Shown: positions 2,883 through 62,559 of the stretch, piece by piece
Numbering within the stretch: the stretch's first letter is position 1
Layout: each line of letters begins with the position of its first letter
DNA from: Plasmodiophora brassicae
Lineage: Eukaryota
Assembly (NCBI GenBank): GCA_036867785.1
Contig: CP145419.1
Location: 62,001-126,000, forward strand
DNA length: 64,000 nucleotides
Reading direction: 5' to 3'
Notes under the pieces: model-generated
The model's input: only the letters and a program-made list of their open reading frames with translations
What the model was told of the DNA's origin: nothing
Database searches by the model: none
Made by a program: the position numbers and the translations under genes

Positions 2883-3522
2883 GGCCCGGATCTCTGTTCG
2901 GCCCGTGCGTGCGCCGTGCACGTCGTCGTAGGACCTGCTGCTCCTGCTGCTGCTGAACGAGTCGCAACGCCCTGTGACGGAACCGTGCAGGCAGGGCGGC
3001 GCACGAGCCACCGCATCGGCATCGGATGGGACGTCAATTGGCAACACGCACACACACACGTACTCGCACGCACACACTCAGCGTGCTGAATGGAAGGGGG
3101 GCACCACCCGTCCAGTTGTGCGGTGGCCCTCGTCGAGGACGACGACGGCCGCGTATCGCTTGCGCGATCAGGACGGGCGTATGCGCCACCGGCGCCGGGA
3201 CCCCCGGGCACCACTTCCGTTCAATCGCGCCCGCGTTGCCGTCGTTCGGCAGGGCCGGTCAGCACGTGGTGGTGCCATGAACTCGTTGCACGTACCGGTG
3301 CGTGTGCCTCTGTGCGAGTTTGTATGTGTACTGTACTACAGTATGACGATGGCAGCCCGGTCGGGTGTGGCCCGGGACGATGACGTCCTTCACCTTGTGA
3401 CGGTCAGTTGCGAGGCCGGGTTCCCCTTCGTGTTGTGGCTGTCGTTGATCCCCCGCGCCCGGCCGGCTCCCGCGCATCGTCCGACACACCCGCGAGAGCG
3501 AGGAGGGCGGCTTGCGCGCACG

Positions 3523-47283: not shown

Positions 47284-47339
47284 TAGTCGCACCTTACCCT
47301 ATGCCGTATTGTAGTCGCACCTTACACTATGCCGTATTG
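47284..47339. repeat. Tandem 2 x 28 nt direct repeat (1 mismatch), intergenic
   Basis: TAGTCGCACCTTAC(C/A)CTATGCCGTATTG occurs twice. Confidence 0.9.
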
Positions 47340-47504
47340 TTTGTTCGCAAGTCAACGTGGGCGCCGCCGCCGATCGCAAGCCACAGGACACACAGCATTG
47401 GTGTTGGCGGCCGTTGTCGTCGTCGTCGTCGTCGCCAGGCTGTGTTGTGTGTCCGCCCGTCCAGGGTCGTTTTGTGTGTGGAGGGGAGGAGGCGCCTACC
47501 GGCG

Positions 47505-50500
47505 ATGGGCGCCCACGTGCGACGGAGTTGGTCGTCCCGCCTCGTTCGTCTGCGTTGGGTCGCGACGCGGCCCGGGCCCAGCGACGGGCCGCCCGCCCTG
47601 ATCGACTTCTTCCGGCGCCCGTCGATCCATGTCGCCATGCGCATCCTCGAGCAGGAGGACAGCGCCGACCGGGGTTGGGCCGTCTTCCGCCACGTCATCG
47701 ATTGCCGCCTGCGGCCCCGCGTCCCCTTCTTCCATCGCGTCCTGCAATTCTGCCGACGAACGGCACCTGGCAAGGCGCCCGACGTGATCCGCGCCGCTAT
47801 CGAGCAGGGCGTCCCGGTGGACGGCCCTGCCTTCTGCTCCTACCTCGGGTGCTGTCGACGTGCGGGGCGACGCGCCCTGCTCGACGACGCCCTGGCGCTG
47901 TATCGCCAGGTGGGCCCGCCTGCCCATAACGTCATCTGCACCCTGGCGGGTTTGTGTCGCGATCACGGGCGGCCGGCGTCGGCCTTGTTCCTCGTGGAGG
48001 ATGCCCTCCGGCAGGCGGTGGAGTTCACCGACGTGCTCTTGTCCGTCCTGGCCGCCTGCTGTGCGGAATCCGGCTGTACGGCCGGCGCCGACACGGCCGA
48101 ACGCCTCCTCGGCCTGGTCGCCTGCCGTCGCATCCCGGCCCATCGCAACCAGCAGACGTTCGGCAACCTCGTCAAGGCCCTGGTTGCGCAGGGGCGCTGC
48201 GTCCAGGCCGCCGCCGTTCTCCCGGTGATGGACTCGGTCCGGCTCGTCCCCGACCAGCACGTTTACGCGCTGGTCATCGGTGGGCTGGCCAGGCAGGGGA
48301 CGACCGCTGGCATTGGCCGGGCGCTCGCTGTGTTCCGGTCCATGACCGCCCGCGGCATCGACTTGCACGCTCCCGTGCTCCTGACGCTCGTCGCCGCCTG
48401 CGGGCACTGCTCGTGCGTCGGCGCCCTGGACGAGGTGGGCCGGGTCGCGACCGCCCACCCCGGCGTCTGGCACGACGACGTCTACCTCGTCAATGCCTTC
48501 CTGGCCGCGTACCACCGGTGCGGGCGCGCCGATGTCGCCGATGCCCTGTTCCGGCGGGTGCCGGCTCCCGACGCGACCACGTGCAACACGATGGTCAGCG
48601 CGTACGCCAAGGTCGGGCGCGTCGCTGACGCCCTGGACCTGGTCCGGTCGATGCGGTCCCGGGCGATGCGGGTGCACGCGCGCGTGTTCGCCAGTCTCGT
48701 CGCCGCCGCCGCCGCCTGCGCCCACGGCTCGTCGCTCGACTCGCTCCACGCCCTGCATCGATACGCCCTGGACGCCGCCGACGGGTCCCTGCTGGACCAC
48801 GCGTTCGTCGTCAGCGCGTTCGCGGCCGCGTTCGGCCGCTGCCTCGACGAGGCGTCGCTGCGGCAGGTGCACCGGCACGCGTCGGCACGGCCGCATCTCG
48901 TGGGCGACCCGAGCGTGACCAGCGCCCTGATCGCCGCCTACGGCCAGTGCGGCGACGCCGACAGCGCCGAGCGCGTCTTCAGCCGGTCCACGTTGCCGTA
49001 CGTGGACCCGTCGGCGTTCGCCAGCGTCGTCGCCGCGTACGGGCGCCTGGCGCGCCTGCCCGACCTTCGCCGGCTGCACCTGTACGCCCGGCGCGAGTCG
49101 CTCCTGCCGAACGTGTTCGTCCTGAACGCGTTCGTGGCCGCGTTCGCGCGCTGCTCCGACCTGTCGTCCATCCGGGCGCTGCACGCGTTCGCTCGCGACG
49201 CCGACCTGCTGCTGACGCAGCCTGGCGTGCTGGGCGCCCTCGTGTCGGCGTACGGGCGGTGTGGCGACGCCGGTGGCGCCGAGCGCGTCCTCAACGCGTA
49301 CGGCAACGCGGATCCGTCGGCGTTCGCCAGCGTCGTCGCCGCGTACGGTCGCCTGGCGCGCCGGGCGGACGTCGACCGGCTGTGCCAGGAGGCGGCGCGC
49401 GCCTCCCTCCTGTCGGACGCCCACGTCGTCAGCGCCCTGGTGGTCGCCCACGCGCGCTGCTCCGACCTGGCCGCCGTGCGCGCCCTGCACCGCGTCGCCT
49501 CGACCCGGGCGCTCCTGGCGAACGGGCGCGTGGCCAGCGCCGTCATCGCCGCCTACGCCTTGTGCGACCGACCCGAGGCGGCCGAGCGCGCCTTCGTCCA
49601 GGCGGGAGGTGCCGACGCGCACCCGTCCGCGTTCGCGTACGTCGTCGCCGCGTACAACCGCCCGGACGACATCGACCGCCTGCATCGGTACGGCGAGCGG
49701 CACGGCCTGCTGGCGAACGGGGCCGTCGTCAGCGCGTTCGCCGGCGCCTACGGGCGCGGCGGGCAGCGTGCCGCGCTCTGGCGCCTTCGTGAGCGGGCCG
49801 CGCGCGTCCTGACCGCGCCCGGCGTCGTGAACGCGTTCGCCGCCGCGCACGCTCGTTGCGACGACTGGGCCAGCGCCGAGCGCGTCGTCGACGACGCCAG
49901 GGCGGCGGCCCAGGTCGACCCGGGCACGCACGCCGACCTGATCGCCGCCTACGCGCGCCTGGGGTGCCTGGACCGCCTCGCCCTGTACGCCGAGCGGCAC
50001 CAGGCGCTGATGTCGAACGCCGTCGTGGTCGGCGCGTTGGCGGCCGCGTTCGGCCGCTGCTCGGCGCTGTCCTCCGTTGCCGCCCTGCATCGCTTCTGCA
50101 GGTCGACCTCGATGCTGTCCGACGTCGGCGTCGTGGCCGCGTTCGTCGGCGCGTACGCGCGCTGCGCCCACCTCGACCTGGCCGAGCGCGCCTACCGCTC
50201 GCTGACGGGGACGCCGAACCCCGCCGCCGCCGCCGCCTGCAACGCCATGATCGGCGCCTACGCCCACCATGGCCTGCTGTCGGCGGCCACGGCGACGTTC
50301 GCTGAGGCGGCGGGCCTGGCGCCGGACGCGACCACGCTGCTGGCCCTGCTGAGGGCCTGCGCCAACGCCGGCGACCTGCCGGCGGCGACGTCGATCCTGT
50401 CGCAGTTCGCGTCGGCCTGGCCGCACGTCCAGGTCGACGCGCGCCACACCGCCTGCCTCGTCGCCCTGTACGGGCGGGCCGGGCGCCTGGACGAGGCGGA

Positions 50501-51143
50501 ACGCCTGGCGATCAGCGCCGGCCGCCACGCCTGGGTGGCGCTCCTGGACGCCTGCCGGCAGTGGAGCGATGTCGCGCGCGCCGAACGCGCCCTGTCGGCC
50601 CTGCTGTCGTCGCCCGTGCCGCCTGCCGACCGGCACCGGGTCCTGCCGGGCGCGTACGCTCTCATGGATCAGGTGTACGCGGCGGTGGGCCGCGGGCGCC
50701 TTCACCGGGGCGGCGCGCTGACGGACCAGGTCGCCGATCCGGATCGCGCTGCGGCAACGTCGCTGGTGCTGCCCGATCGCACCGTCCGGTTCCAGTCGAT
50801 GGATCGCCTCGCGGATGCGTCGTTGGAGCGCGCGTATCGTCGCCTGCTGCGGGACCTGACCCGGCACGGGTACGCGCCCGACCCGGCCGTCGTCACGCGC
50901 CGCCGGGGACGCCGACCAGTGCGCCTGCACAGCGAGAAGGTCGCCCTGGCGTACGCGCTGACGGTGCAGGCGGCGGGCGCCCCGATCTACGCGACGCAGC
51001 GGCACCGCGTCTGCGCCGACTGCCACGACGTGCTCCGGCGCGTCTCGTCGGTGTACGGGCGCGACGTGCACGTGCGGGACCCGGTGCGGCACCACCACTT
51101 CCGCAACGGGCAGTGCTCCTGTGCGCGTCGTCCCTGCCGATGA
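47505..51143 (+). CDS. PLS-class pentatricopeptide-repeat protein with E and DYW-type deaminase domain, intronless, ~1212 aa
   Basis: Many 31-36 aa PPR motifs; terminal P2-L2-S2-E1-E2-like block; C-terminal GYAPD...LHSEKVALAYAL...RVCADCH...GRDVHVRD..RHHHFRNGQCSC; Arg/Ser-rich N-terminus. Confidence 0.92.
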   Translation: MGAHVRRSWSSRLVRLRWVATRPGPSDGPPALIDFFRRPSIHVAMRILEQEDSADRGWAVFRHVIDCRLRPRVPFFHRVLQFCRRTAPGKAPDVIRAAIEQGVPVDGPAFCSYLGCCRRAGRRALLDDALALYRQVGPPAHNVICTLAGLCRDHGRPASALFLVEDALRQAVEFTDVLLSVLAACCAESGCTAGADTAERLLGLVACRRIPAHRNQQTFGNLVKALVAQGRCVQAAAVLPVMDSVRLVPDQHVYALVIGGLARQGTTAGIGRALAVFRSMTARGIDLHAPVLLTLVAACGHCSCVGALDEVGRVATAHPGVWHDDVYLVNAFLAAYHRCGRADVADALFRRVPAPDATTCNTMVSAYAKVGRVADALDLVRSMRSRAMRVHARVFASLVAAAAACAHGSSLDSLHALHRYALDAADGSLLDHAFVVSAFAAAFGRCLDEASLRQVHRHASARPHLVGDPSVTSALIAAYGQCGDADSAERVFSRSTLPYVDPSAFASVVAAYGRLARLPDLRRLHLYARRESLLPNVFVLNAFVAAFARCSDLSSIRALHAFARDADLLLTQPGVLGALVSAYGRCGDAGGAERVLNAYGNADPSAFASVVAAYGRLARRADVDRLCQEAARASLLSDAHVVSALVVAHARCSDLAAVRALHRVASTRALLANGRVASAVIAAYALCDRPEAAERAFVQAGGADAHPSAFAYVVAAYNRPDDIDRLHRYGERHGLLANGAVVSAFAGAYGRGGQRAALWRLRERAARVLTAPGVVNAFAAAHARCDDWASAERVVDDARAAAQVDPGTHADLIAAYARLGCLDRLALYAERHQALMSNAVVVGALAAAFGRCSALSSVAALHRFCRSTSMLSDVGVVAAFVGAYARCAHLDLAERAYRSLTGTPNPAAAAACNAMIGAYAHHGLLSAATATFAEAAGLAPDATTLLALLRACANAGDLPAATSILSQFASAWPHVQVDARHTACLVALYGRAGRLDEAERLAISAGRHAWVALLDACRQWSDVARAERALSALLSSPVPPADRHRVLPGAYALMDQVYAAVGRGRLHRGGALTDQVADPDRAAATSLVLPDRTVRFQSMDRLADASLERAYRRLLRDLTRHGYAPDPAVVTRRRGRRPVRLHSEKVALAYALTVQAAGAPIYATQRHRVCADCHDVLRRVSSVYGRDVHVRDPVRHHHFRNGQCSCARRPCR

Positions 51144-51380: not shown

Positions 51381-52529
51381 TCATGATGCGGTCGGGGAGG
51401 TTCGCGCGTGCCAGTGGTCGACGTTGCTGTCGAGGTTCTGCAGCAGGACGGACGCCTCGGGCATGACGCCGACGACGATGTCGACGAGCGGCCGGGCGAT
51501 GTTGGCGGAGAACCCGGAGACGACCGCCTCCGGGTCGCTGCTCACCCGGGACAGGAACGCGTTCGGGACGTGTCCGAGGCCGACGACGGCGTCGTGGACG
51601 CGCATCAGCTCGTCGATCAGGCACTGGGCCCAGTGGACCGACACGGCCCAGGGCCGGCACACGTTGCCGATGTCGGCGAACTTGATGAACATCTGCAGGA
51701 CCAGGGTGACGCGGGTGTCGCGCGGCACCGACGCCGCATCGCCCGTGGCGCGCCCGCCCGGGAACAGGTCGTTCCACCTGGCCAGGATCCGGTGGTGCAC
51801 CGACATGTCGGTCGCCAGGATGCACTGCCCGACCAGGTCCAGGACGCGCTGTCGATCGGCGCGTGGCAGCCGGCCCAGGATGTCGCAGTCGGGGTCGTTC
51901 AGGATGACGCGCGCGCACGCCAGGTGGTGCGTCTCGAGCGGCGACTCGCACGCCTGGTACTTGGTCGACAGGTGCGACTGGATCGACACCTGGAACGCAA
52001 AGTCGGTGCCCGGGTGCTCCAGGTCGTGGCAGATGGCGGCGACGACAAGCGCCAGCGCCTCGACGGGCGTCAGCGACGCCGCCCGCTGCCCGCCCAGCAC
52101 CAGCAGCATGTAGCAGAACTGTGTCACGTCGAACGCATGCCGGAACGAATGGTACGGGTTCAGGTACTTGGCGTACCCCATGCGCACCTGGCGCAGGAAC
52201 GCCAGGGCGACGTCGCGCTGGATCGCGAACGACCGCAGCAGGTCCGAGTCGCACAGGATCCACAGCAGGCCGGCGATCATGTCCGGTTCCGACCAGGCGA
52301 ACGCGTCGAACGCGATCCGGTCGAGGTTGCCGGCGAATTCGTCAGGCGCACGGGACGACGGCGCGTCGCCGGCGCCGGCGGCCATCGCGCAGATCGCGTT
52401 GCGCCGGCCGTGCAGGTCGCGCCGCGACCGCGACGACGACGACGCCGTTGCCGACGATTCGGATCGCGACCGCAGGACGGCAAGCGGCTTGCCGTGCGAA
52501 TGGCCGCCGTCGACAACGATAACGGCCAT
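51381..52529 (-). CDS. Class I 3',5'-cyclic nucleotide phosphodiesterase (catalytic domain only), intronless
   Basis: NPYHSFRHAFDV, AAICHDLEHPG, LETHH, ILATDMSVH, IKFADIGNVCRPW. Confidence 0.92.
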   Translation of the reverse strand: MAVIVVDGGHSHGKPLAVLRSRSESSATASSSSRSRRDLHGRRNAICAMAAGAGDAPSSRAPDEFAGNLDRIAFDAFAWSEPDMIAGLLWILCDSDLLRSFAIQRDVALAFLRQVRMGYAKYLNPYHSFRHAFDVTQFCYMLLVLGGQRAASLTPVEALALVVAAICHDLEHPGTDFAFQVSIQSHLSTKYQACESPLETHHLACARVILNDPDCDILGRLPRADRQRVLDLVGQCILATDMSVHHRILARWNDLFPGGRATGDAASVPRDTRVTLVLQMFIKFADIGNVCRPWAVSVHWAQCLIDELMRVHDAVVGLGHVPNAFLSRVSSDPEAVVSGFSANIARPLVDIVVGVMPEASVLLQNLDSNVDHWHARTSPTAS

Positions 52530-53005
52530 CGGCGGCGACGACGGTCGGTCCGCCAGGTCCGATATGGCGCCGTGCGGAGACACACAGCGCACTGACGGTC
52601 GTTGTTGGTGTGTCCGACGACTGCCGCCCGACCGACGCGCAGCCCGCGTCCGCAAACGGGCTCCTATTTTCGGACCCACGGGCCCCGCGGCCGAAGTCCG
52701 GCGAACCGTCGGTCGCGCACTCCTCGTATGGGGCTGCAGTCAGTGGGACCCAGTTGCGGCACTGCAGCGAGCAGTTTCGCGGACGGCGGATCGGTGGGGC
52801 ACCCTCCGCGGGCGTCCTGCCTGCCCCACCAAAAAAGGACGATCGTAGCTGCGAACGCGCTGCAGAAATATGTGCCTTACCAGTTCACGTGTGCGCAGTG
52901 ATTGTGGCGTCCAGTGGACCTGCTTGCGCTGCGCAGTCCGACCAGGCGACCACGGCGTTCCCCGCTATTACCTCTCTACCTTCTACTGCCTTCTGCCGCT
53001 CAGCG

Positions 53006-53512
53006 ATGTCGCCCGCCGCCGCCGCCGTGTCTGTGGCCGTGCTCGCTCTGGCCGTTTCGGCGGTGACGGAACAGCGGACGATTCGATTCGGGTCCGTGCC
53101 GGACGCTGTCAGCCCAACGATGAGTCGGCCCCACGTGGTGCGTTGGGTAACGGCTCTCGGCGGTAGGCGTGCTCCGGGGACGGTCGGCCCACCCGGGTTC
53201 AACCGTGCGCTTTCCGCGAGGACGCGCGCGGTCCCCATGCAACGGCAGATACGTCAACCGATGCGATCCGAGCAGGGCAGTCTCGAGAGCGCCACCGTCA
53301 TCGTCGACGTGGTTTCGGACGATGTGAACGCGGACCCGACGTCCTGTCAAGCACCGGCCGGCAACCTGGACGCGAACGGCGACCCGTTAACGGCGGCAAC
53401 GACCACGTCTATGGCCAGCGTCGATGGACCGCAACTGGATGCCAACGGTAACCAGGTGATCTACACCGAACAGGTCGGGCCACATTTCACAGACATTCTG
53501 GTACTGCGATAG
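53006..53512 (+). CDS. Small putative secreted protein (3' end may be spliced further)
   Basis: N-terminal MSPAAAAVSVAVLALAVSA looks like a signal peptide; LDANG occurs twice. Confidence 0.5.
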   Translation: MSPAAAAVSVAVLALAVSAVTEQRTIRFGSVPDAVSPTMSRPHVVRWVTALGGRRAPGTVGPPGFNRALSARTRAVPMQRQIRQPMRSEQGSLESATVIVDVVSDDVNADPTSCQAPAGNLDANGDPLTAATTTSMASVDGPQLDANGNQVIYTEQVGPHFTDILVLR

Positions 53513-53547
53513 GCCAGGCCGACTGCACGATACACAGTAGCGTTCAT

Positions 53548-54523
53548 TTACCGCCCAATGGCAACACGTAGGTCGGGACGCAAGACGCACAGGTTGTTGA
53601 GCTCCGTCAGCAGGCGTGCGCTGGTCTTTGTCGCTTTGATTCGGTAGATACCTGCGAGGTCAACGCCCCGGGTCAGGTACGTGCAATACGTACTGTCGGG
53701 GGCGCCAAGTTCGTACTGTCTACAGGGGCCTCCGCCCGACCGATGCCGCATCGCTGGAGCTCCTCCAATGTGAACGCAGCAAAGACCATGTATTGCTGCT
53801 GCTGCTGCCTGCGGCCCACAATGTTCAGCGTGCACGATTCCGGGCGCGCAAACCAACGGTGGCGAACCAACACAGGAGTGGCTGCGAGCTGTGCACGCAG
53901 CTGGTCGCGGTCTGCCTCACGCGCCGCAAGACAGAATAGGGTAGGGCGCGTATCCTGGGCGTCCGCCAGCACCGGCCACGATCCCATCGACAGGAGCAAC
54001 TTCACGCATGCTTGTCGTATTTCATCTGCCAGAACCTGTGCGGCATCTGCCCGCTGACCGGGACGGAACGCTGCCCAAGGTCGCACGTCAGGCACCCAGC
54101 AATCGGTGGAACGGCCAGCAGCACGTGCGCACACTGTTTGATCTTGGCTGCCAGCACGGAGGGCAGGGCGAACGCGTACGACCCTTTGCCATGGCGACGT
54201 CGCATACCATCAGGCACCGTGACACTGCCGCCCTGCGGCGCCCGACTCGGCACGGCGCTGAACGCGATCAGGAAGGCGCGCGGGAACCGCCTCCGCGTCA
54301 CCGTGCACCGTCGGACCGGCGTGGTCATCGGCGACAGCACGGCTGACAGCGCGAACGTGAGGCACAGGCGGGGCGGACCCGACCAGCGGCACCTACCAGC
54401 CTCATTCGGGTACAGCAATCGTTTCGTGTACGCGTCGATGACCTCGTCTGCGTATGTCGATAGGGCTCTCCTGCAGATGCTGATGCTGCTGCTGTTGGGC
54501 AGCGACGCCCAGCGCTGCAGCAT
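53548..54523 (-). CDS. Hypothetical multi-exon protein
   Basis: Overlapping minus-strand ORFs with protein-like segments (ALSTYADEVIDAYTKRLLYP; QVLADEIRQACVKLLL) and intron-like gaps. Confidence 0.45.
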
Positions 54524-54599
54524 GCGCAGTCGCGCAGTTGCAGTTCCGCAGTCGTACCTGTTACTGGTGGAGCTACGGCCAACGCGGGCACTGTTTTAT

Positions 54600-55349
54600 T
54601 CAGACGCACCCGCAGCAGAGGCAGGACGCCGGGTCGCCGCTGAAGATGGGGTTATATCCGAAAAGCTGGCGGAAGGCGTCGGCCCAGGCCAGCTGGACGA
54701 CGGGCAGGGCGACGAGGCCGCCGACGCCGAACCACAGGCTGCCGGCGAGGAGGATCAGCAAGGAGAGGGCCGCCAAGACGACGATGCTCCAGACGACGTG
54801 CCGTGACGTCCGGTACGACACGGCCATGCTGTCGAGGACGTTGATCCCATGGTTGTGGTACTCGATGAAGACCATCGGCGCGAAACTCAGCGTGGCCATG
54901 GCGTAGATGCCGGGCAGGACGAGCAACGCCAGGCCGACGACGGTCAGCAACCTGACGAGGAGCGTGATGACGATGATGGGGAAGAAGTACATGACCGGCG
55001 TGAACAGGAAGCTTCCGACATCGAACTCCCAGTCGTTGTCGCGGGATGTGTTCGCGGCGACGATAAACGGGGCGTACTGGAACGGCACCGATAGCAGCAG
55101 CAGCACAGGGGCTGCCAGCAGGACCTTTGCCGACTCGGCGAAGTACGCCAGTACCGCGACGTTCTGGAGGATAATGTAGATGAGCGCCCAGAACATGTAC
55201 GCCCAAGGGTGCTGCTCGAACATGGCCCAGCCGGCGCGAACGGCACCCTTCACGTCCAGCTTGGGTTCGCCGGTCGGATGCAGCAGACGCCCGACGACAT
55301 CGTCCAGCGCATGGTTGGAGCCAAGCAACGCCTGCGACTCGGTCGCCAT
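54600..55349 (-). CDS. Integral membrane protein (about 4-5 TM) with Cys-rich C-terminus, intronless
   Basis: Hydrophobic helices; GLALLVLPGIY...SFAP...DSMAVSYR...G.LVALPV pattern; ends CLCCGCV. Confidence 0.75.
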   Translation of the reverse strand: MATESQALLGSNHALDDVVGRLLHPTGEPKLDVKGAVRAGWAMFEQHPWAYMFWALIYIILQNVAVLAYFAESAKVLLAAPVLLLLSVPFQYAPFIVAANTSRDNDWEFDVGSFLFTPVMYFFPIIVITLLVRLLTVVGLALLVLPGIYAMATLSFAPMVFIEYHNHGINVLDSMAVSYRTSRHVVWSIVVLAALSLLILLAGSLWFGVGGLVALPVVQLAWADAFRQLFGYNPIFSGDPASCLCCGCV

Positions 55350-55585
55350 AGGGAGTGCCAGCAGTGAGGGGGTCCCGCCGCCGACGCCTCAGCCCAATCG
55401 GCGGTGTGGCAGCGCTCGGGCGCCGACACGTTCGCTGGGCCGCGCTGCCCGACATGTTTGTCCCGACACAGGTTCACGCGAGCGTTTGGTAATGCTGGCG
55501 AAACGGTGTCGCGCGCCGCCGGCTTACCGGTCAGGCGTACGTACGATCGACGACAGCGTACGATCGAGGATAGGCGACGCGGTCG

Positions 55586-56371
55586 ATGATGCCGGACGAC
55601 GGTCTGTCCATGTTCCTGTCGTTCTCGCACGACGACCTGGACCTGGCGCAGGGCCTGCACCGGGCCCTGCAGGCGGGCCGCGGCCAGGTCTGGGCCGACT
55701 GGGAGACGGTCGCCGCCACCGCCGCCTGGACCGACGAGATCCACCGCGCCGTCGCCCGCGCCGACCTGTTCGTCGCCCTGATCAGCCCCGAGTACCTGCT
55801 GAACGCCAGCTGCCAGGAGGAGATCGCCCTGGCCGCCCACCACCGCAAACGCGTCCTGGCGTTCTGCACGAAATCCCTGCCTCGGGACTGCCTGCCCGCC
55901 GGCATCGCCGACGCCGACATTGCCGTCCTGAAGCCGCCCCGCGCCGACGCCGACCTGCACGACGCCGTCTGGGGCGTCCTGGGCGCCGTCGAATGCGCCG
56001 ACGGCGACGCGATCCGGTCGCACACGCGCCTCCTGCTGGCCGCCCTGCAATGGGACAGGGACGGGCGCCCGCGCTGGCGCCTGCCGGACGCGCCGTCGGC
56101 CACAGAGCGCCGGTCGCGATGCAACCTGTCCGACCTGCAGGTCGCGTTCCTCGACGAATCCGACCGGGCGCGCCAGGGCCGGCGCGCGCGCGCCGCCCTC
56201 TGCGCCGTCGTCGCCCTCGTCGCCCTCGTCGGCATGGTCGCGGCCCCCGTCCCGATCGTCGTCTACCTGACCGTGATCGTCCCCGTCAGCCAGGCGCCGC
56301 TGCTGCTGCCCTTCCTGCGTCGTCGCCGGCGAGCGCCAGCGACAACGCTGACGTACGCGACGCCGACATGA
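55586..56371 (+). CDS. TIR-domain (TIR_2, bacterial type) protein with C-terminal hydrophobic anchor, intronless
   Basis: MFLSFSHDD, VWADWE, WTDEIHRAVARADLFVALISPEYL..ASCQEEIALA...KRV; C-terminal ALCAVVALVALVGMVAAPVPIVVYLTVIVPV. Confidence 0.88.
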   Translation: MMPDDGLSMFLSFSHDDLDLAQGLHRALQAGRGQVWADWETVAATAAWTDEIHRAVARADLFVALISPEYLLNASCQEEIALAAHHRKRVLAFCTKSLPRDCLPAGIADADIAVLKPPRADADLHDAVWGVLGAVECADGDAIRSHTRLLLAALQWDRDGRPRWRLPDAPSATERRSRCNLSDLQVAFLDESDRARQGRRARAALCAVVALVALVGMVAAPVPIVVYLTVIVPVSQAPLLLPFLRRRRRAPATTLTYATPT

Positions 56372-56435
56372 TGACGTACACACGACGACATAGCGCTATG
56401 AGATGTTGTTGTATGTGCGCGTGCGGGTACGGTTA

Positions 56436-58268
56436 TCAGGCGGCGGGCGCCGACGCGGGGACGACGCTGGCGTTGCCGGCGTAGAGCGACACCTGCTGGT
56501 CCCTCCTGTACAGCGTGACGGCGGGAACGACCACGCCCCGGATGCCATCGAACGCGACGCCCAGCCGGACGCCGTTCTTCGTGAACGATAGCGAGGCGGT
56601 GCCGTCGCCCCGGCACGACAGGTCCATGCCGATCGTGTCGCCGCGCGCGAACATCGGCCCGTATGCGGTCGGCTTCCCGGCGTGGACCTTCTTGCCCGTC
56701 GTGCACTGGACCGCCCACGACGTCAGCGACGTGCCGCCCAGCTGGACGCGGGCGCACGACGACAGGGTGGGGGGCGCGACGCTCACCCCCAGGTACATGC
56801 CCTGGACGTTGCGCAGGCCATCGGCGTCGATCTGGAACAGCCAAGAATGGTCGCGCGGCACCGACGTATCGACAGGCTGCCTGCCGAGCGCGGTCACGTG
56901 CCCGGGGGCGGCCGAGGCGCCCGCCACCCGGACCGTTCGTCGCCGGTTGGACAGGACCAGGGCGCCGGTGCCGGCCACGTCCGCCCACGTCGGCATGCCG
57001 CGCCGGCGCAGGCGACGCGCGAACGCGGGCGACACGCTGTCGAGCGCGTCGTGATCGTTGTCCTGCAGCGCTTTGGCCATGATGGCGCCGACGGAGACCA
57101 GGTCCTTCGGGACGGTCGAGGCGGCGGCGTTGGCGCCCATCAGGCGCGATGCGGACAGGAACGCGAACCGGCACGTCTTCCAGAGGAGGCGCCGCTCGTC
57201 GGCGGGCAGGGCGGCGCCGCGTGGCCCGCCCAGGTACGTCGCGATGCGATCGAAGACGTCGTCCTCCGACTCGACCTGCAGGTCGTCCTGGTCGAGGACG
57301 CCGGCCACTGTGGCCGGCGACAGCGACAGGAACGACGCCTGCGGCAGGCGGTCGATGTCCCGGGCGATGCTCGCCAGGCACCGTCGGTGCACCTTGCGCA
57401 GCTTGGCGTCGTCGTCGTCGTCGGCAACGCTGTCGTGCAGGCAGTCGAGGAAGAACAGCGCGTCGCCGCCGGCGATCGGGAACCGGTCGTCCTGCAGGAA
57501 CCCGAGCAAGGTCGCCGTCTGCGCCGGCGTCAGCGTGTCCCGGAAGTCGCGCAGGTACCGGGCCAGGAAGCAGGCCAGGGCGTCGCCGTCGTCGACGACC
57601 AGGTCGTCGTGGTCGAGCAGGACGGCGATGACGTCCGGCGACGTCAACCGCCACTGGTCGTACGACAGGTACGACAGGCGGCGCGCCAGGTGCGCCAGGC
57701 ACGCCTGGACGATGTCGCCCATCGAATGGTTCATCTCCAGGCAGCGCAGCAGAACGGCGTGCGCCGCATCCAGGCCGGCGTCGAACGTTCGCCGCAGGAA
57801 CGCATCGGCCAGGGCGCGCAGCGCCTCGACCTGCAGGTAGTCGGCCAGGACGAGGACGGGGACGACGGTCGTCTCCGTCAGCGTCCCCGGGGGCAGGTCG
57901 CCCTCGTACATGAACTCGAGCACGGCGGGGAACAGGCCCATCATCTGCCGGTCGATGTCGGCGATGCGGCACGCCAGCGACAGCGGGCAGGCGCAGGGGC
58001 CCGCGCATCGGCACAGCAGGGCGCGCCCGATCTCGAGCGTCGTGCAGCGCTCGGCGCTGTCGTACCCCATGGCGAACCGATTGTAGAAGTAGGCTGAGCT
58101 GCGCGGGCCGACCGCGATCACGAAGCGGTGGACGGGGAAGCGGCGCGTGCCGACCACGATGGTCCAGTCGGACAGGGCGCCGTTCCGCCACGACGCGTCG
58201 CCATGCGGGCAGTACCCATCCTCCAGCGAATCAGATAGCAACGCGCGTCTGCGCGCGTCGATACACAT
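56436..58268 (-). CDS. BTB-BACK-SPRY/B30.2 protein (probable in-frame intron near 57960-58020)
   Basis: SDWTIVVGTRRFPVHRFVI...SAYF; VLEFMYEG; VLADYLQV; DDLQVESEDDVF; C-terminal YGPMFARGDTIGMDL...LSFTKNGVRLGVAF...PAVTL. Confidence 0.88.
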   Translation of the reverse strand: MCIDARRRALLSDSLEDGYCPHGDASWRNGALSDWTIVVGTRRFPVHRFVIAVGPRSSAYFYNRFAMGYDSAERCTTLEIGRALLCRCAGPCACPLSLACRIADIDRQMMGLFPAVLEFMYEGDLPPGTLTETTVVPVLVLADYLQVEALRALADAFLRRTFDAGLDAAHAVLLRCLEMNHSMGDIVQACLAHLARRLSYLSYDQWRLTSPDVIAVLLDHDDLVVDDGDALACFLARYLRDFRDTLTPAQTATLLGFLQDDRFPIAGGDALFFLDCLHDSVADDDDDAKLRKVHRRCLASIARDIDRLPQASFLSLSPATVAGVLDQDDLQVESEDDVFDRIATYLGGPRGAALPADERRLLWKTCRFAFLSASRLMGANAAASTVPKDLVSVGAIMAKALQDNDHDALDSVSPAFARRLRRRGMPTWADVAGTGALVLSNRRRTVRVAGASAAPGHVTALGRQPVDTSVPRDHSWLFQIDADGLRNVQGMYLGVSVAPPTLSSCARVQLGGTSLTSWAVQCTTGKKVHAGKPTAYGPMFARGDTIGMDLSCRGDGTASLSFTKNGVRLGVAFDGIRGVVVPAVTLYRRDQQVSLYAGNASVVPASAPAA

Positions 58269-58455
58269 ATTATACGTCCGCGTCGACGATTAAGTTAGTG
58301 CTCGTCGCCGACACGACAGCGGACGGTCAGCGCGATGGATTTCACAGGTCAGGTCGACGCCCCGCGTGTGACTCAACCAGCACGAGCGCGCATGACGCAA
58401 CGACGACGCGCACGGAGCCGGTGACGTCACGATGGTTGTCCTCGCCGCCGGCCGT

Positions 58456-59400
58456 TTAGTACAATCTATGTGGTGGAGCCGTCGAGTAGCCACCCCCGCG
58501 ATGGTGGTGATCGGAATGGCCGGAACCGACAGACTCGCCGCCATGGGCATGGCCGAGGTCGACCACGCACGGCAGCAGCAGGCCGGCAACGACGGCGACG
58601 ATGGTGGTCCAGGACGTCGTGCCGGCGGCCCTCAGGGCCTCCGGCAGGATGTGCATGGCGGCCACGTACAGGAACGTGCCGCCCGAGAACAGCATCAGGT
58701 TGCCGAGCCGGGCGTGGTTCAGCTCGTGTTCGTTGCCGGCGAACAGGATGAAGGTTGCGATGGCGGCCAGGGGCGCCGACGCGGCGAACAGCAACAGGCA
58801 CCGCATCATCTCGGATCGCGGGCGGTTGTGCTGCGCGAAATGGGCCATCAGCGTGAAACTGGCGGGCGCCTTGTGCACCAGGAGGGCGATGAAGACGACG
58901 GCCTCGACGGACGACTGGTTCGACAGGGAGATGGCGCCCAGGGCGATACCGTCGGCGGCCGAGTGCACAAGCAGGCCGACGAACGCGGTCGACGTGCTCG
59001 GCGCGTGCGAGTGCCCATGAGACGAGGCGGTCGCAGGGTCCCTTAACGCGACCTGCTCCGCGTCGTCGGATTTGGGGCGCTCGGACGACGCGGCCCCGAA
59101 CGGGATGTGGTCGACGACAAGCATGAGCACCAGTCCGAGGGCGATGGCGACGCCGAACGACGACGGCAGGCCGTCGTCACACCCGTCCTGCAGGAGGAAC
59201 CGCGCCCCCTCCGGAATGATGATCGTGACGGCGGTGCCCATGAAGAGGCCGGCGCCGGCGGCGTTGACCAGCGGCATCAGTGTCGACGCGCGCGACGACG
59301 GCGCCGCGCGCCCGACAACCCACAACGGGATCAGGCCCGACGCGGCACTGCCCAGGAACATGCCGATCGACAGGACGACCAGGTCGACGATGGAGCCCAT
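58456..59400 (-). CDS. ZIP family zinc transporter (ZIP9-like), intronless
   Basis: GAGLFMGTAVTIIIPEG, His loop HGHSH, GLLVHSAADGIALG, ALLVHKAPASF, MLFSGGTFLYVAAMHILPE. Confidence 0.93.
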   Translation of the reverse strand: MGSIVDLVVLSIGMFLGSAASGLIPLWVVGRAAPSSRASTLMPLVNAAGAGLFMGTAVTIIIPEGARFLLQDGCDDGLPSSFGVAIALGLVLMLVVDHIPFGAASSERPKSDDAEQVALRDPATASSHGHSHAPSTSTAFVGLLVHSAADGIALGAISLSNQSSVEAVVFIALLVHKAPASFTLMAHFAQHNRPRSEMMRCLLLFAASAPLAAIATFILFAGNEHELNHARLGNLMLFSGGTFLYVAAMHILPEALRAAGTTSWTTIVAVVAGLLLPCVVDLGHAHGGESVGSGHSDHHHRGGGYSTAPPHRLY

Positions 59401-59634
59401 GACGAACACCCGGCGACCCACCCCTCCACCACTGCCCGCACACGGCACTTTCACATCTGGCCCCCCGCCGTTTGACGCTGCCTGACACGCGCACACGCAC
59501 GGAGTGTTACATGCGCGGTCGCAGCTGCTCACGCGCAGCACGAGGTACAGTCATCAGGACCGACTGGGGCGAGCTGCAACGCGTCACTGTCGAGCTGCAC
59601 ACACGGCTCCGGTGGACTAGGTCTGCTCCGGAGT

Positions 59635-62559
59635 TTATTGAGCAGTGCCCGGACCCGCGGGAGGATCCGGTCGCGGGGTCGCCTCGGCCTGACCAGGAGG
59701 TGGTGATGATGGTCGTCGCCGTCGTCGTCGACCAGGTGACCGATGACGTCGCTTGCAGTCTGCGACCTGGTTGCAGGCCTGGGCGCGTTCGTGCTCGGCA
59801 GTGGCGATGGCCTGGCGCAGGCGAATGATTTCGCGTTTGGCGTCAAGGAGCTGGGCCGCTGTCGTTTCTAGCTTGGCGTTGGCCGACGTTGCGTTTCGCA
59901 GCTCCTGCTCCAGCACGTCGATCCGGATGCCCAGCTGGACCTGGCGCTTCCGGGCGCGAGCCTGCAGGGTCGCCATTTGCGCCTGCCACTCGCCTTTCTG
60001 CTTCGCGACGCTCTCGTTCGCCTGCTCGACGCAGGTCTGCAACGCCTCCGCATACGACTTGATCTGATTGCTGGCCTGCGCCGCCTCCAGGTTCTGCGCT
60101 CATAACCGGCGTTAGGTCGGTTCGCATTCTGCGGTGTTTGCGTCGAACCTCTTGGCGTCGCAGGCCCTCGGACGTCTCGAACGCCGTCCGGACTGTGGAC
60201 AACCTGAGCGTCGCCGCCTAACACACACACACATGACGAAAGATGAGATCGTTCGTGGAGGTGCCTCCGACGCATCGTACGGGACCTGAACCAACTGTTG
60301 CATGTGCGCGATCTGCCTGCAATTCTGCTTGTCGCGCGCCTGGGCTTCCTGTTTGACGGGGGGAGCAAACGCATCAACCAGCAGCTGCCGACGAGTGTTT
60401 CAAGGACCCAGGGCCACCGACCGTGGCGGCCTGTAGCAGGTCGGCGTTCGTGCGCCTGAGATCGGCGTTCTTCTGCCTGAGCGCCGCGCTGGCCCACTCG
60501 GCTGACTGGCGCGCTCCGTCTAGCTCCTGTCGCCATCTCTGCAATCCGTCGCGTTGTCATCCCCCGGGATGTGCAACACAGTGTCCCCATTTCGGTACCG
60601 CATCGTTCTCAGCCAGGGCCGCTTCCAGCGACGACGACGTTTGGCGCCGAATGGCGTCGATCTCGGCGCGGAGGTCGTCGTTCTGCTGCAGGGCGTCGAG
60701 CAACCGGGCTTGAATTTCTTGTACGGCAGTGTTATGGGTCGACTGGAGCGCGTCGCGCTCCTTGACATGTTTGGCCCGTTCCTCAGTCAGGTCGCGTTGC
60801 AGGTTGAACGCGGTCTGCCGCCACACTTGCCGCTCCTGCTGGTGCTCCTGAATCGCATTCATCTTGTCGCGGTTGACACTGTCGACGAGTGCCAGGAGTC
60901 GCTCCTCCGCCTGCCGCCCTGCATAGCCGCATGCAGCAATCAGGTCTGTGTGCCGTTGGCTGAACATCCAATCGGTGACCCCCCAACCCTGTTCGATAGC
61001 CTGCTCTCGTCCCTCGTTGGACATGCGAACCATCTCCAACAGCTTCTGCTCCTGGGCTATATAACGCCATTAGAGCGCGTGCATTGCAGGAAGGAACGTC
61101 GCCAATCGTACCACTCCATCGAGAGCGCTCCGACGTGGCGCTTCGGTTCCCCGTATCGATCGTGGCTGGTGCCATCCCGTTCTGTTCAGCAGCACACGAC
61201 GGGCGCTGCTCTGCATCACCTCCATCGGTGTACACCGGTGGCGAGCCTGGCGAGGACTGGAAGCGGAATGCCTGCAGGCCAAGCGGGGCGTCGTACAGGA
61301 CCCAGATCGCATCCGTCCCCACATAAACGTCTGTGCATCGACCGGATGAGCGTCCACAACGCCAGGCAAACTGGGCCCGGGGCATTGCACCTCTGATCGT
61401 GGCCATGGCGTTCGGCAGCGTCTGCCTGGCGGCGTAATTCCTCGTGTCCCAAACGGCCACGTTGCCGGTGGCCGATACAGTAACGACATCTGCACCGGCC
61501 GAGCGGATGACCGCGATCGGATCCGATCCCGTGATCGTTGTCGTGCAGACGTGGACGTCGGCGTCCCAGATGGCGATACTGCCACAGCGGTACGCGCACC
61601 AGACCGTCCCGGTCGCCTCGACGTGCGCGACGTCGACCACTTCGTTGCCGTTCGTGTCGAGGCTGGCCACCAGGTGGTTCACCTCGTCGTAGACGCGGAT
61701 GCCTGCGGGCGGGCCGCCCAGCCAAACCTGTTCCCCCACCGCCCGCATCACGTTCACCTGCGCGCGTCATGATCAACAGTGCTGTGCCGCGACCGACGTG
61801 AACGGCGCCGACCTTGGAGATGGCGGCCGACGGCAGGGCGGTGGCGTTGGCCGGGGCCCCGAGACGGACGTCGCACGTGGCCAGTTCCAGATCGGAGGTC
61901 ACCGTCCACAGCGTGTTGCCGCTGTACGCCATGTGGACAAACGAGGCGCCTGGGCGCATGTCGTTCCGGCACGTCACCGCCGCCAGCGATGCCTGGACGT
62001 CGACAACCCAGAACTGAAGCCGGGCGTCCGACGTGCTGATCCAGAATCCGTCCGACGAGGCCGCCACCGACGTCACCGTTGGCGGGCCGCCGGATGCCGA
62101 CAGGAGATTGCCGCCCAGACCGACGGCGTCGTCAATGTCGGTCACCAGCGACGATGGATGCTCGTTGACGTTCCACTCGTGGGACTCGGCGATTGCCACT
62201 GCATGGCGCTCAGGGGAGTCGACGGCGGTGCCCCGCCCCCCGACCTACCTAGATCCGATGGAGGCAACGCGTCCGCGCGGGCGCATCGCTGCCTGGTTCG
62301 CGGGTCGAAGACCTGGATCTGGCCGGTCGCAGTGACGGCCACGACGTGCTGTTGTGCACCGCATCGGAACACGCACATGGGCACATGCTGGGCGTCGGCG
62401 CCGTCCACGTCCAACCGTTCGCCAATGGGATCCATTCGTTCGGCAGGGTCGGTCGATGACGATCCCGGTCTCTCTCTGTCTCGTTGATCGATCCCGGGTA
62501 CGCCTGGTAATGGCGTTCGCCTGCCGGGACGTGCGCGCCACGGTTCCTGCGTCTGGCAT
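59635..62559 (-). CDS. Multi-exon protein with N-terminal WD40-like beta-propeller and C-terminal coiled coil (may be two genes; ends approximate)
   Basis: GQIQVFD, ARLQFW, GIRVYD, GSIAIWD and GNVAVWD repeats, then long E/Q/R/L-rich heptad exons. Confidence 0.6.

Follow-up and report, generated by a model that had tools for sequence, protein, structure and literature searches.

The open reading frame at 55586..56371 (+) of the window, by which we mean the whole 64,000-nucleotide stretch of Plasmodiophora brassicae DNA analysed here (contig CP145419.1, positions 62,001 to 126,000), encodes a protein made of a TIR domain, a helical linker and a hydrophobic tail. The best overall explanation, to which we give a probability of roughly 0.45, is that it is a membrane-anchored TIR inherited within the rhizarian lineage and acting inside the parasite. 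TIR NADases, horizontally acquired protist TIRs and TIRs tethered by a transmembrane (TM) segment are already known; the wider finding is an unstudied, conserved family of membrane TIR proteins in Rhizaria, of which the query protein is a divergent relative.

Gene structure and genomic setting

The gene (locus PBRA_008101) is a single intronless frame of 261 residues, listed by NCBI in a 260-residue form that starts at the second ATG, and it is a genuine P. brassicae nuclear gene. Its neighbours are eukaryotic by Pfam (BTB-BACK-SPRY, ZIP transporter, phosphodiesterase (PDEase) and PPR-DYW proteins), it sits on a 1.2-Mb contig, and its GC3 (0.94) matches that of the neighbours (0.89-0.95), which together exclude bacterial contamination. 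The frame ends at residue 261, the next gene being a convergent BTB-SPRY gene, and tblastn of the 64-kb window revealed no second TIR.

The public gene model of PBRA_008101 gives a different product, a soluble protein of 151 residues from which the linker and most of the tail are removed by a 327-nt, in-frame intron at 55967..56293 (+). Although this intron has canonical GT..AG ends, its length stands against 54-73 nt for neighbouring introns (n=12 measured), its GC at the three codon positions (0.79/0.53/0.95) is of the coding type, and it encodes the conserved linker. Transcript evidence came from the contigs of four runs, from four studies, among 20 runs containing the stretch; no run among the 20 is recorded as RNA, and the four are taken to be RNA because of their GT-AG joints, those found in all four being CT..AC introns of adjacent minus-strand genes. 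A single unbroken contig crosses the supposed intron in 4/4 runs (one run's contig ends at 56352), and the 55967-56293 joint was found in 0/4 runs while neighbouring-gene joints were present in 4/4; such contigs report presence only, carry no transcribed strand, and could miss a rare spliced form. The idea that the 151-residue form is the main product, or that the locus is a bacterial contaminant, is thus largely refuted, and we regard it as very improbable. This corrects the public model, in which the 151-residue form hides both linker and anchor.

Several further observations concern the locus. In run X14, which represents a divergent isolate, the two differences within the TIR frame among the stronger ones listed are one silent and one conservative change, with no indel among them. 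The same run carries a divergent allele set across window positions 52000-60000, e.g. three contigs nearby with 7-9 differences per 600-670 bases, but only 7 differences over the 1,756 bases containing the TIR gene. A 55-nt GT..AG intron at 54852-54906 (+), spliced in 3/4 runs, lies inside and antisense to a 249-residue membrane-protein frame (54600-55349, -), and would mark either antisense transcription or an extended leader that precedes the TIR gene. Farther upstream, an uninterrupted frame at 47301-51143 (+) encodes a PPR protein that ends in a DYW deaminase domain (Pfam E 1.2e-21), a rhizarian example of an RNA-editing-type factor, and the gene at 53648-54523 (-), which has four introns, matches YlxR/DUF448 weakly.

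TIR domain and the putative catalytic glutamate

The TIR domain occupies 55607..55927 (+), corresponding to residues 8-114, and matches Pfam TIR_2 (PF13676) over residues 10-104, scoring 58.3 bits (cut-off 28; E 1.4e-15). The motif SCQEEI lies at residues 75-80, and its second glutamate, Glu79 (GAG, 55820..55822, +), takes the CxxE position of the putative catalytic residue; this column of the alignment holds Glu in 46/46 bacterial and 21/26 protist relatives. In two AlphaFold2 runs, each with a 12-row alignment, residues 8-114 adopt a TIR fold (pLDDT of 10-residue blocks about 80-93 over residues 11-100), followed by helices at 123-158 and 183-219, the latter continuing into the hydrophobic segment, and by a low-confidence end. 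The top Foldseek matches of the model are the TIR domains of SPARTA TIR-APAZ and SARM1 (best E 4e-6, 15-20% identity). Profile, alignment, model and structural matches therefore bear out the sequence-only reading in its claim of a TIR with the SCQEEI glutamate at 55820 in the CxxE position. A homodimer prediction in which the alignment was not used scored 0.10 against a mark of 0.32, which speaks neither for nor against binding.

Positions F10, S12, D17, W36, D38, W48, E51, S67, P68, C76 and E79 are kept, as are W39 and E40, while the IPP motif that the family has in its BB loop is eroded, lacking I-P; and of 44 positions conserved in both bacteria and protists the query keeps 27, fewest of all 73 rows, the next lowest keeping 32. 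Losses include the BB-loop proline, W112 and the LLRG..W core of the linker. That Glu79 and the pocket are retained while 17 of the 44 family-wide positions are gone suggests that function has been kept, and we predict an active NAD+ hydrolase at somewhat better than an even chance; low or no activity is a possible consequence of the erosion seen in the BB loop and the core of the linker. The same losses, together with the occurrence of Glu-less paralogues in the protist family (5/26 rows), underlie a rival explanation that would fit either origin discussed below, in which the query is a catalytically weak or dead paralogue, either decaying or confined to scaffolding or regulating the conserved P. 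brassicae copy. An intact frame with GC3 of 0.95-0.96 throughout, the selective keeping of pocket residues and the listed silent and conservative changes in run X14 all count against this, and we hold it to be rather unlikely.

Linker, hydrophobic tail and topology

Behind the TIR domain, a helical linker at 55943..56161 (+) carries HTRLL (56021-56035), W156 and LQVAFLDES. The sequence-only reading had described D..AIRSHTRLLLAALQWD and LQVAFLDES after the TIR, and both were found in the frame; the AIRSHTRLLLAALQWD motif can be aligned to the linker that follows the TIR in bacterial relatives, and D, H, R and W are invariant across a 26-row alignment. The linker is common to bacterial TIR-TM-WD40 proteins and the rhizarian family, its LLRG..L..A..W core being about ten residues shorter in the query, and it gave no significant match in Pfam, NCBIfam or PDB sequences. 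A likeness of the linker to the end of nSTAND-type NTPase proteins was considered and proved unsupported: 85/85 linker matches in bacterial loci lie directly behind a TIR, and four plasmid linker matches are TIR proteins.

The tail (56192..56317, +) is a run of 42 uncharged residues (203-244) with a mean hydropathy of 2.2, preceded by a basic patch and followed by RRRRR, in agreement with the basic-then-hydrophobic tail noted earlier; it may comprise a single TM helix and a further segment, or else fold as a hairpin. The run is as long as 42 residues in the query vs a median of 38 in protist relatives (n=69 proteins) and a median of 24, with a maximum of 35, in bacterial ones (n=69). By sequence the query tail did not match the protist tail profile (0.4 bits; 142/300 shuffles scored as high). 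No C-terminal WD40 or CHASE2 sensor is present in the frame, which comprises TIR, linker and tail and nothing beyond, so that the description as a membrane-tailed TIR lacking a sensor holds. By hydropathy, the N-terminus bears no hydrophobic signal (19-residue window means at most 0.3 over the first 40 residues). Under general membrane-topology rules, this lack of a hydrophobic N-terminus and the basic patches flanking the tail indicate that the TIR should face the parasite cytosol.

Relatives in bacteria

A protein search of 1.84 billion representatives returned 5,622 matches at E up to 0.001, of which the best 150 were examined. Among these 150, the best per-domain scores (85-91 bits) all belong to proteins that begin with the TIR and carry the bacterial linker, mostly with WD40 repeats, and the best relatives are bacterial TIR-linker-TM-WD40 proteins of up to 41% identity. 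Four of the six top relatives examined are full TIR-linker-WD40 proteins of about 950-980 residues; others listed are multi-TIR-CHASE2 proteins. The earlier suggestion that the post-TIR segment resembles the linker of bacterial TIR-WD40 or TIR-sensor proteins is borne out by its match to both TIR-TM-WD40 and TIR-CHASE2 linkers. Of 430 candidates in a genome scan, 403 were confirmed as relatives, and the 80 kept comprise Chloroflexota (46), Cyanobacteriota (13), Actinomycetota (10), Acidobacteriota (4) and others (7). In bacterial proteins (Chloroflexota, Cyanobacteriota, Actinomycetota) a WD40 or CHASE2 sensor follows this core beyond the membrane helix. When full-length rows were used as a profile against PDB, WD40-type proteins appeared among the best 60.

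With respect to bacterial defence, we saw no conserved operon around these relatives: 8/80 adjoining ORFs (19 loci) match PADLOC, mostly as generic enzymes. The query itself did not match Thoeris ThsB or other named defence TIR systems (NCBIfam 30.6 vs 130 and 15.1 vs 220; PADLOC at most 26 bits), and its scanned neighbours include no gene for a partner effector.

A conserved membrane TIR family in Rhizaria

The module also occurs in protists. The supplement of the TIR atlas (PMC13142454) contains the query gene in its 151-residue form, labelled 'Not in supported Clade' (supplement 1), as well as a second P. brassicae TIR (EP00473_P008780, 268 residues) of TIR-linker-membrane build and a Spongospora TIR (P005660, 265 residues) of the same build; its rows further show the module in chlorarachniophyte, Euglypha, Brevimastigomonas, Lapot, Colponema and Gloeochaete proteins. 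A family profile search returned 93 proteins, 73 of them of the rhizarian family, and a scan for the family tail motif returned 58 metagenome loci. Members have about 265 residues, mostly end after the membrane segment without a sensor, and share a mean internal identity of 67% with a near-invariant tail (26 rows); their genomic copies contain GT-AG introns. In the atlas supplement the rows of this family are left unclassified. Chlorarachniophyte forms are more bacteria-like than this conserved family. The WPSWGVFFF tail and the LGKEPKP linker signature of the family are absent from the query, which is hence not the family orthologue; that place is taken by the other P. brassicae copy. To this extent the homologues include eukaryotic TIRs, namely the conserved rhizarian family and the second P. 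brassicae copy, an outcome that the sequence-only reading had set against its proposal and that applies here in part.

EukProt entries of Mataza and Euplotes fall among the family cluster members, and entries labelled Euplotes, Coccolithus and Ploeotia, being nearly identical to cercozoan ones, may derive from co-cultured cells. Divergent paralogues without the catalytic Glu (the 5/26 rows above) retain linker and tail. Two rows of the atlas supplement (supplement 1, rows 3286 and 3613) show the TIR-linker module in larger proteins, fused in Colponema to an ion-transport domain with EF-hands and placed in Lotharella within a long protein with a PH domain; such fusions are possible TIR-coupled channels or receptors. 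The atlas authors labelled the tail of a Lapot copy Saf_2TM (PF18303; supplement 1, rows 3254-3255); our Pfam scan of two family members gave no match to it. ESM Atlas returned bacterial-labelled TIR_2 clusters for both the query and a protist family member, and hence does not separate the origins.

A literature search, with most subscription papers outside its range, found no paper on PBRA_008101, the cercozoan TIR family or the TIR-TM-WD40 family, and among the papers listed for P. brassicae with TIR domains the titles concern host resistance or plant immunity. The available part of PMC10907252 does not cover the rhizarian TIR-linker-membrane family, and the TIR atlas main text (PMC13142454), as available, contains 0 occurrences of Rhizaria or Plasmodiophora. 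Protist TIR enzymes outside Dictyostelium are almost unstudied, and the conserved family may be a better experimental target than the query gene.

Origin of the query gene

The tree comprised 73 rows (the query, 26 protist and 46 bacterial sequences) and 226 columns; the second P. brassicae, Spongospora and chlorarachniophyte copies are known as supplement rows only and stand outside all trees. The protist family forms one clade (SH-aLRT 100) nested in bacteria, and the rhizarian TIR-linker-membrane module is most likely of ultimately bacterial origin. The query is a long branch (2.42 changes per column), weakly placed beside a Burkholderiales protein. A tree constrained to unite it with the protists withstood rejection (p-AU 0.896); its higher likelihood is explained by the poor free search and is not counted as support. 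We also grafted the query on all 141 branches, 90 of them bacterial, of a backbone built without it. Bacterial branches received a weight of 0.88 (LG), 0.90 (six-class recoding), 0.99 (without TM columns) and 0.91 (C20), in a bacterial set picked for likeness to the query and with a query of GC-skewed composition; placement on the protist stem cost 1.6-8.8 log-likelihood units and was never rejected (p-AU 0.06-0.71), and the best place inside the protist crown cost 5.7-15.3 units. The horizontally acquired, truncated TIR proposed from the sequence is thus upheld as regards the bacterial kinship of the linker and the weight on bacterial branches; a transfer specific to this lineage is not shown, as the protist stem withstood every test and the rhizarian family shares the same build.

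On balance we slightly favour an old rhizarian origin, with the query as a fast-evolving second copy of a long-held module, mostly as a sister or chlorarachniophyte-like line; derivation from the crown of the conserved family appears improbable, and an origin other than the rhizarian lineage or a separate transfer very improbable. Separate transfer is the strongest competitor, and we place it somewhat below even odds. By this account, a bacterial TIR-linker-TM-WD40 gene entered the Plasmodiophora lineage later, lost its WD40 and extended its tail while serving the same function, and P. brassicae would hold two independent domestications of one bacterial module. The best-scoring matches, TIR-first with the bacterial linker and mostly with WD40, are in keeping with such a transfer, as is the mean identity of the query to bacteria of 27% (maximum 33%) vs 22% (maximum 26%) to the protist family. 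Diagnostic aligned sites divide into 15 bacteria-like and 10 protist-like, the former including HTR, LQ, TA.W and ISP; by eye, however, such bacteria-like states also occur in the chlorarachniophyte copies outside the tree and would be ancestral. The SPEYL motif is shared by the query and three chlorarachniophyte proteins, but is found in only 1/556 other modules. The placement weight likewise favours transfer, most of all when TM columns are removed, yet the likeness-picked bacterial set and the GC skew both pull towards bacteria, and no single donor stands out, the branch being long and 45-74 of the 90 bacterial branches not being rejected. Neither the best 150 of the 5,622 matches nor the family profile search holds an orthologue of the query copy in other protists. 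The query lacks introns where family copies have them, and prokaryote-derived genes are common in P. brassicae, the young ones being oftener intronless (10.1101/2023.01.27.525846, in the part available); several neighbouring long ORFs are, however, likewise uninterrupted. Tail length, finally, accords with the protist relatives, being close to their median and above the bacterial maximum.

A further scenario combines elements of these accounts: Rhizaria would have domesticated a bacterial TIR-linker-TM sensor early, dropped its outer sensor and retained the rest as a strongly conserved family of membrane NADases, P. brassicae would have independently acquired a second, fast-evolving version, and rare splicing of the 327-nt segment would free a soluble, active NADase. 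We consider it improbable; if true, splicing would act as a built-in switch between the restrained, membrane-bound protein and a soluble NADase, giving this obligate plant parasite a pathway of its own for death or defence.

Predicted mechanism and site of action

The family core consists of a TIR, a helical linker and a membrane segment. Under the preferred reading of a rhizarian-inherited TIR, the tail would insert in a parasite membrane with both ends cytosolic, and the linker would keep the TIR domains off or apart until clustering or release allows them to assemble; by analogy with TirC of Dictyostelium, anchor and linker probably hold the enzyme quiet until then. In TirC a membrane helix restrains toxicity in amoebae, a precedent for a TM-restrained TIR NADase (PMC13142454, in the part available). 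In the assembled state, Glu79 would cleave NAD+ to ADP-ribose and nicotinamide rather than produce 2'/3'-cADPR. This expectation derives from the position four residues before the glutamate, which is S75 in the query, not an aromatic residue, and mostly V or I in relatives. In the available part of 10.1101/2022.05.07.491051, an aromatic residue occupies this position in every cyclising TIR assayed, TIRs without one tend to be non-cyclising, and the W204A substitution in AbTir removed most cyclisation and some activity. The output may consist of a local drop in NAD+ or of an ADPR signal within the parasite, with a possible role in stress, self-defence or programmed death.

The sequence-only reading had also raised host NAD manipulation, and in this respect we depart from it. 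Such a role would make the protein an effector delivered into the plant, depleting NAD+ or making an immune-suppressing cADPR isomer as bacterial TIR effectors do; the organism is an intracellular plant parasite, a glutamate is present at the catalytic position, and NAD-manipulating effectors occur in plant-pathogenic bacteria. Against this, the protein has no N-terminal hydrophobic signal, its C-terminal anchor predicts a TIR facing the parasite cytosol, the residue at Glu-4 is not aromatic, and the rhizarian family is common in free-living Cercozoa without a plant host. An effector role is therefore unlikely, and a site of action within the parasite is more likely than delivery into the plant as a weapon. 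Should the protein prove to be a restrained NADase that is active, the clubroot pathogen would carry in it a self-destruct element relevant to disease control; as a divergent family member and putative enzyme, the query gene itself is of correspondingly limited interest.

Comparison with known systems

The bacterial TIR-linker-TM-WD40 and TIR(n)-linker-TM-CHASE2 proteins, themselves putative enzymes, share with the query a TIR_2 domain with WxDW and CxxE, the HTRLL..A.EW...LQ..(F/Y)..S linker, the basic patch and the TM helix; the query differs in having no sensor, a longer hydrophobic tail and a shortened linker. With the rhizarian family (P008780, P005660, Euglypha, Brevimastigomonas, Lapot, Mataza) it has in common its length, its architecture, its end after a hydrophobic tail of about 40 residues and, for one member, the species, whereas identity is 17-28%, the WPSWG tail motif and the derived residues are lacking, and the family has introns. 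SARM1, SPARTA TIR-APAZ and AbTir NADases have the same fold and catalytic Glu position; unlike these, the query is a putative enzyme without the WxxxE aromatic and without an ARM/SAM or APAZ regulator. AbTir and HopAM1-type cADPR-isomer TIRs carry the aromatic residue four before the Glu (WxxxE), where the query has S75.

Dictyostelium TirC resembles the query in being a bacterially derived protist TIR that is tethered by a membrane helix. It belongs to the CAP12/Pycsar (TIR-STING) clade, has its helix at the N-terminus and has been shown to be active, whereas the query, a putative enzyme, is a TIR_2 protein outside the classified groups and is anchored at its C-terminus (PMC13142454, in the part available). 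No match to PF10137, which marks the Dictyostelium TirBCD clade (CAP12/Pycsar), was found in the query. Set beside TirC, the rhizarian family offers a test of membrane tethering as a recurring eukaryotic way to tame bacterial TIR NADases.
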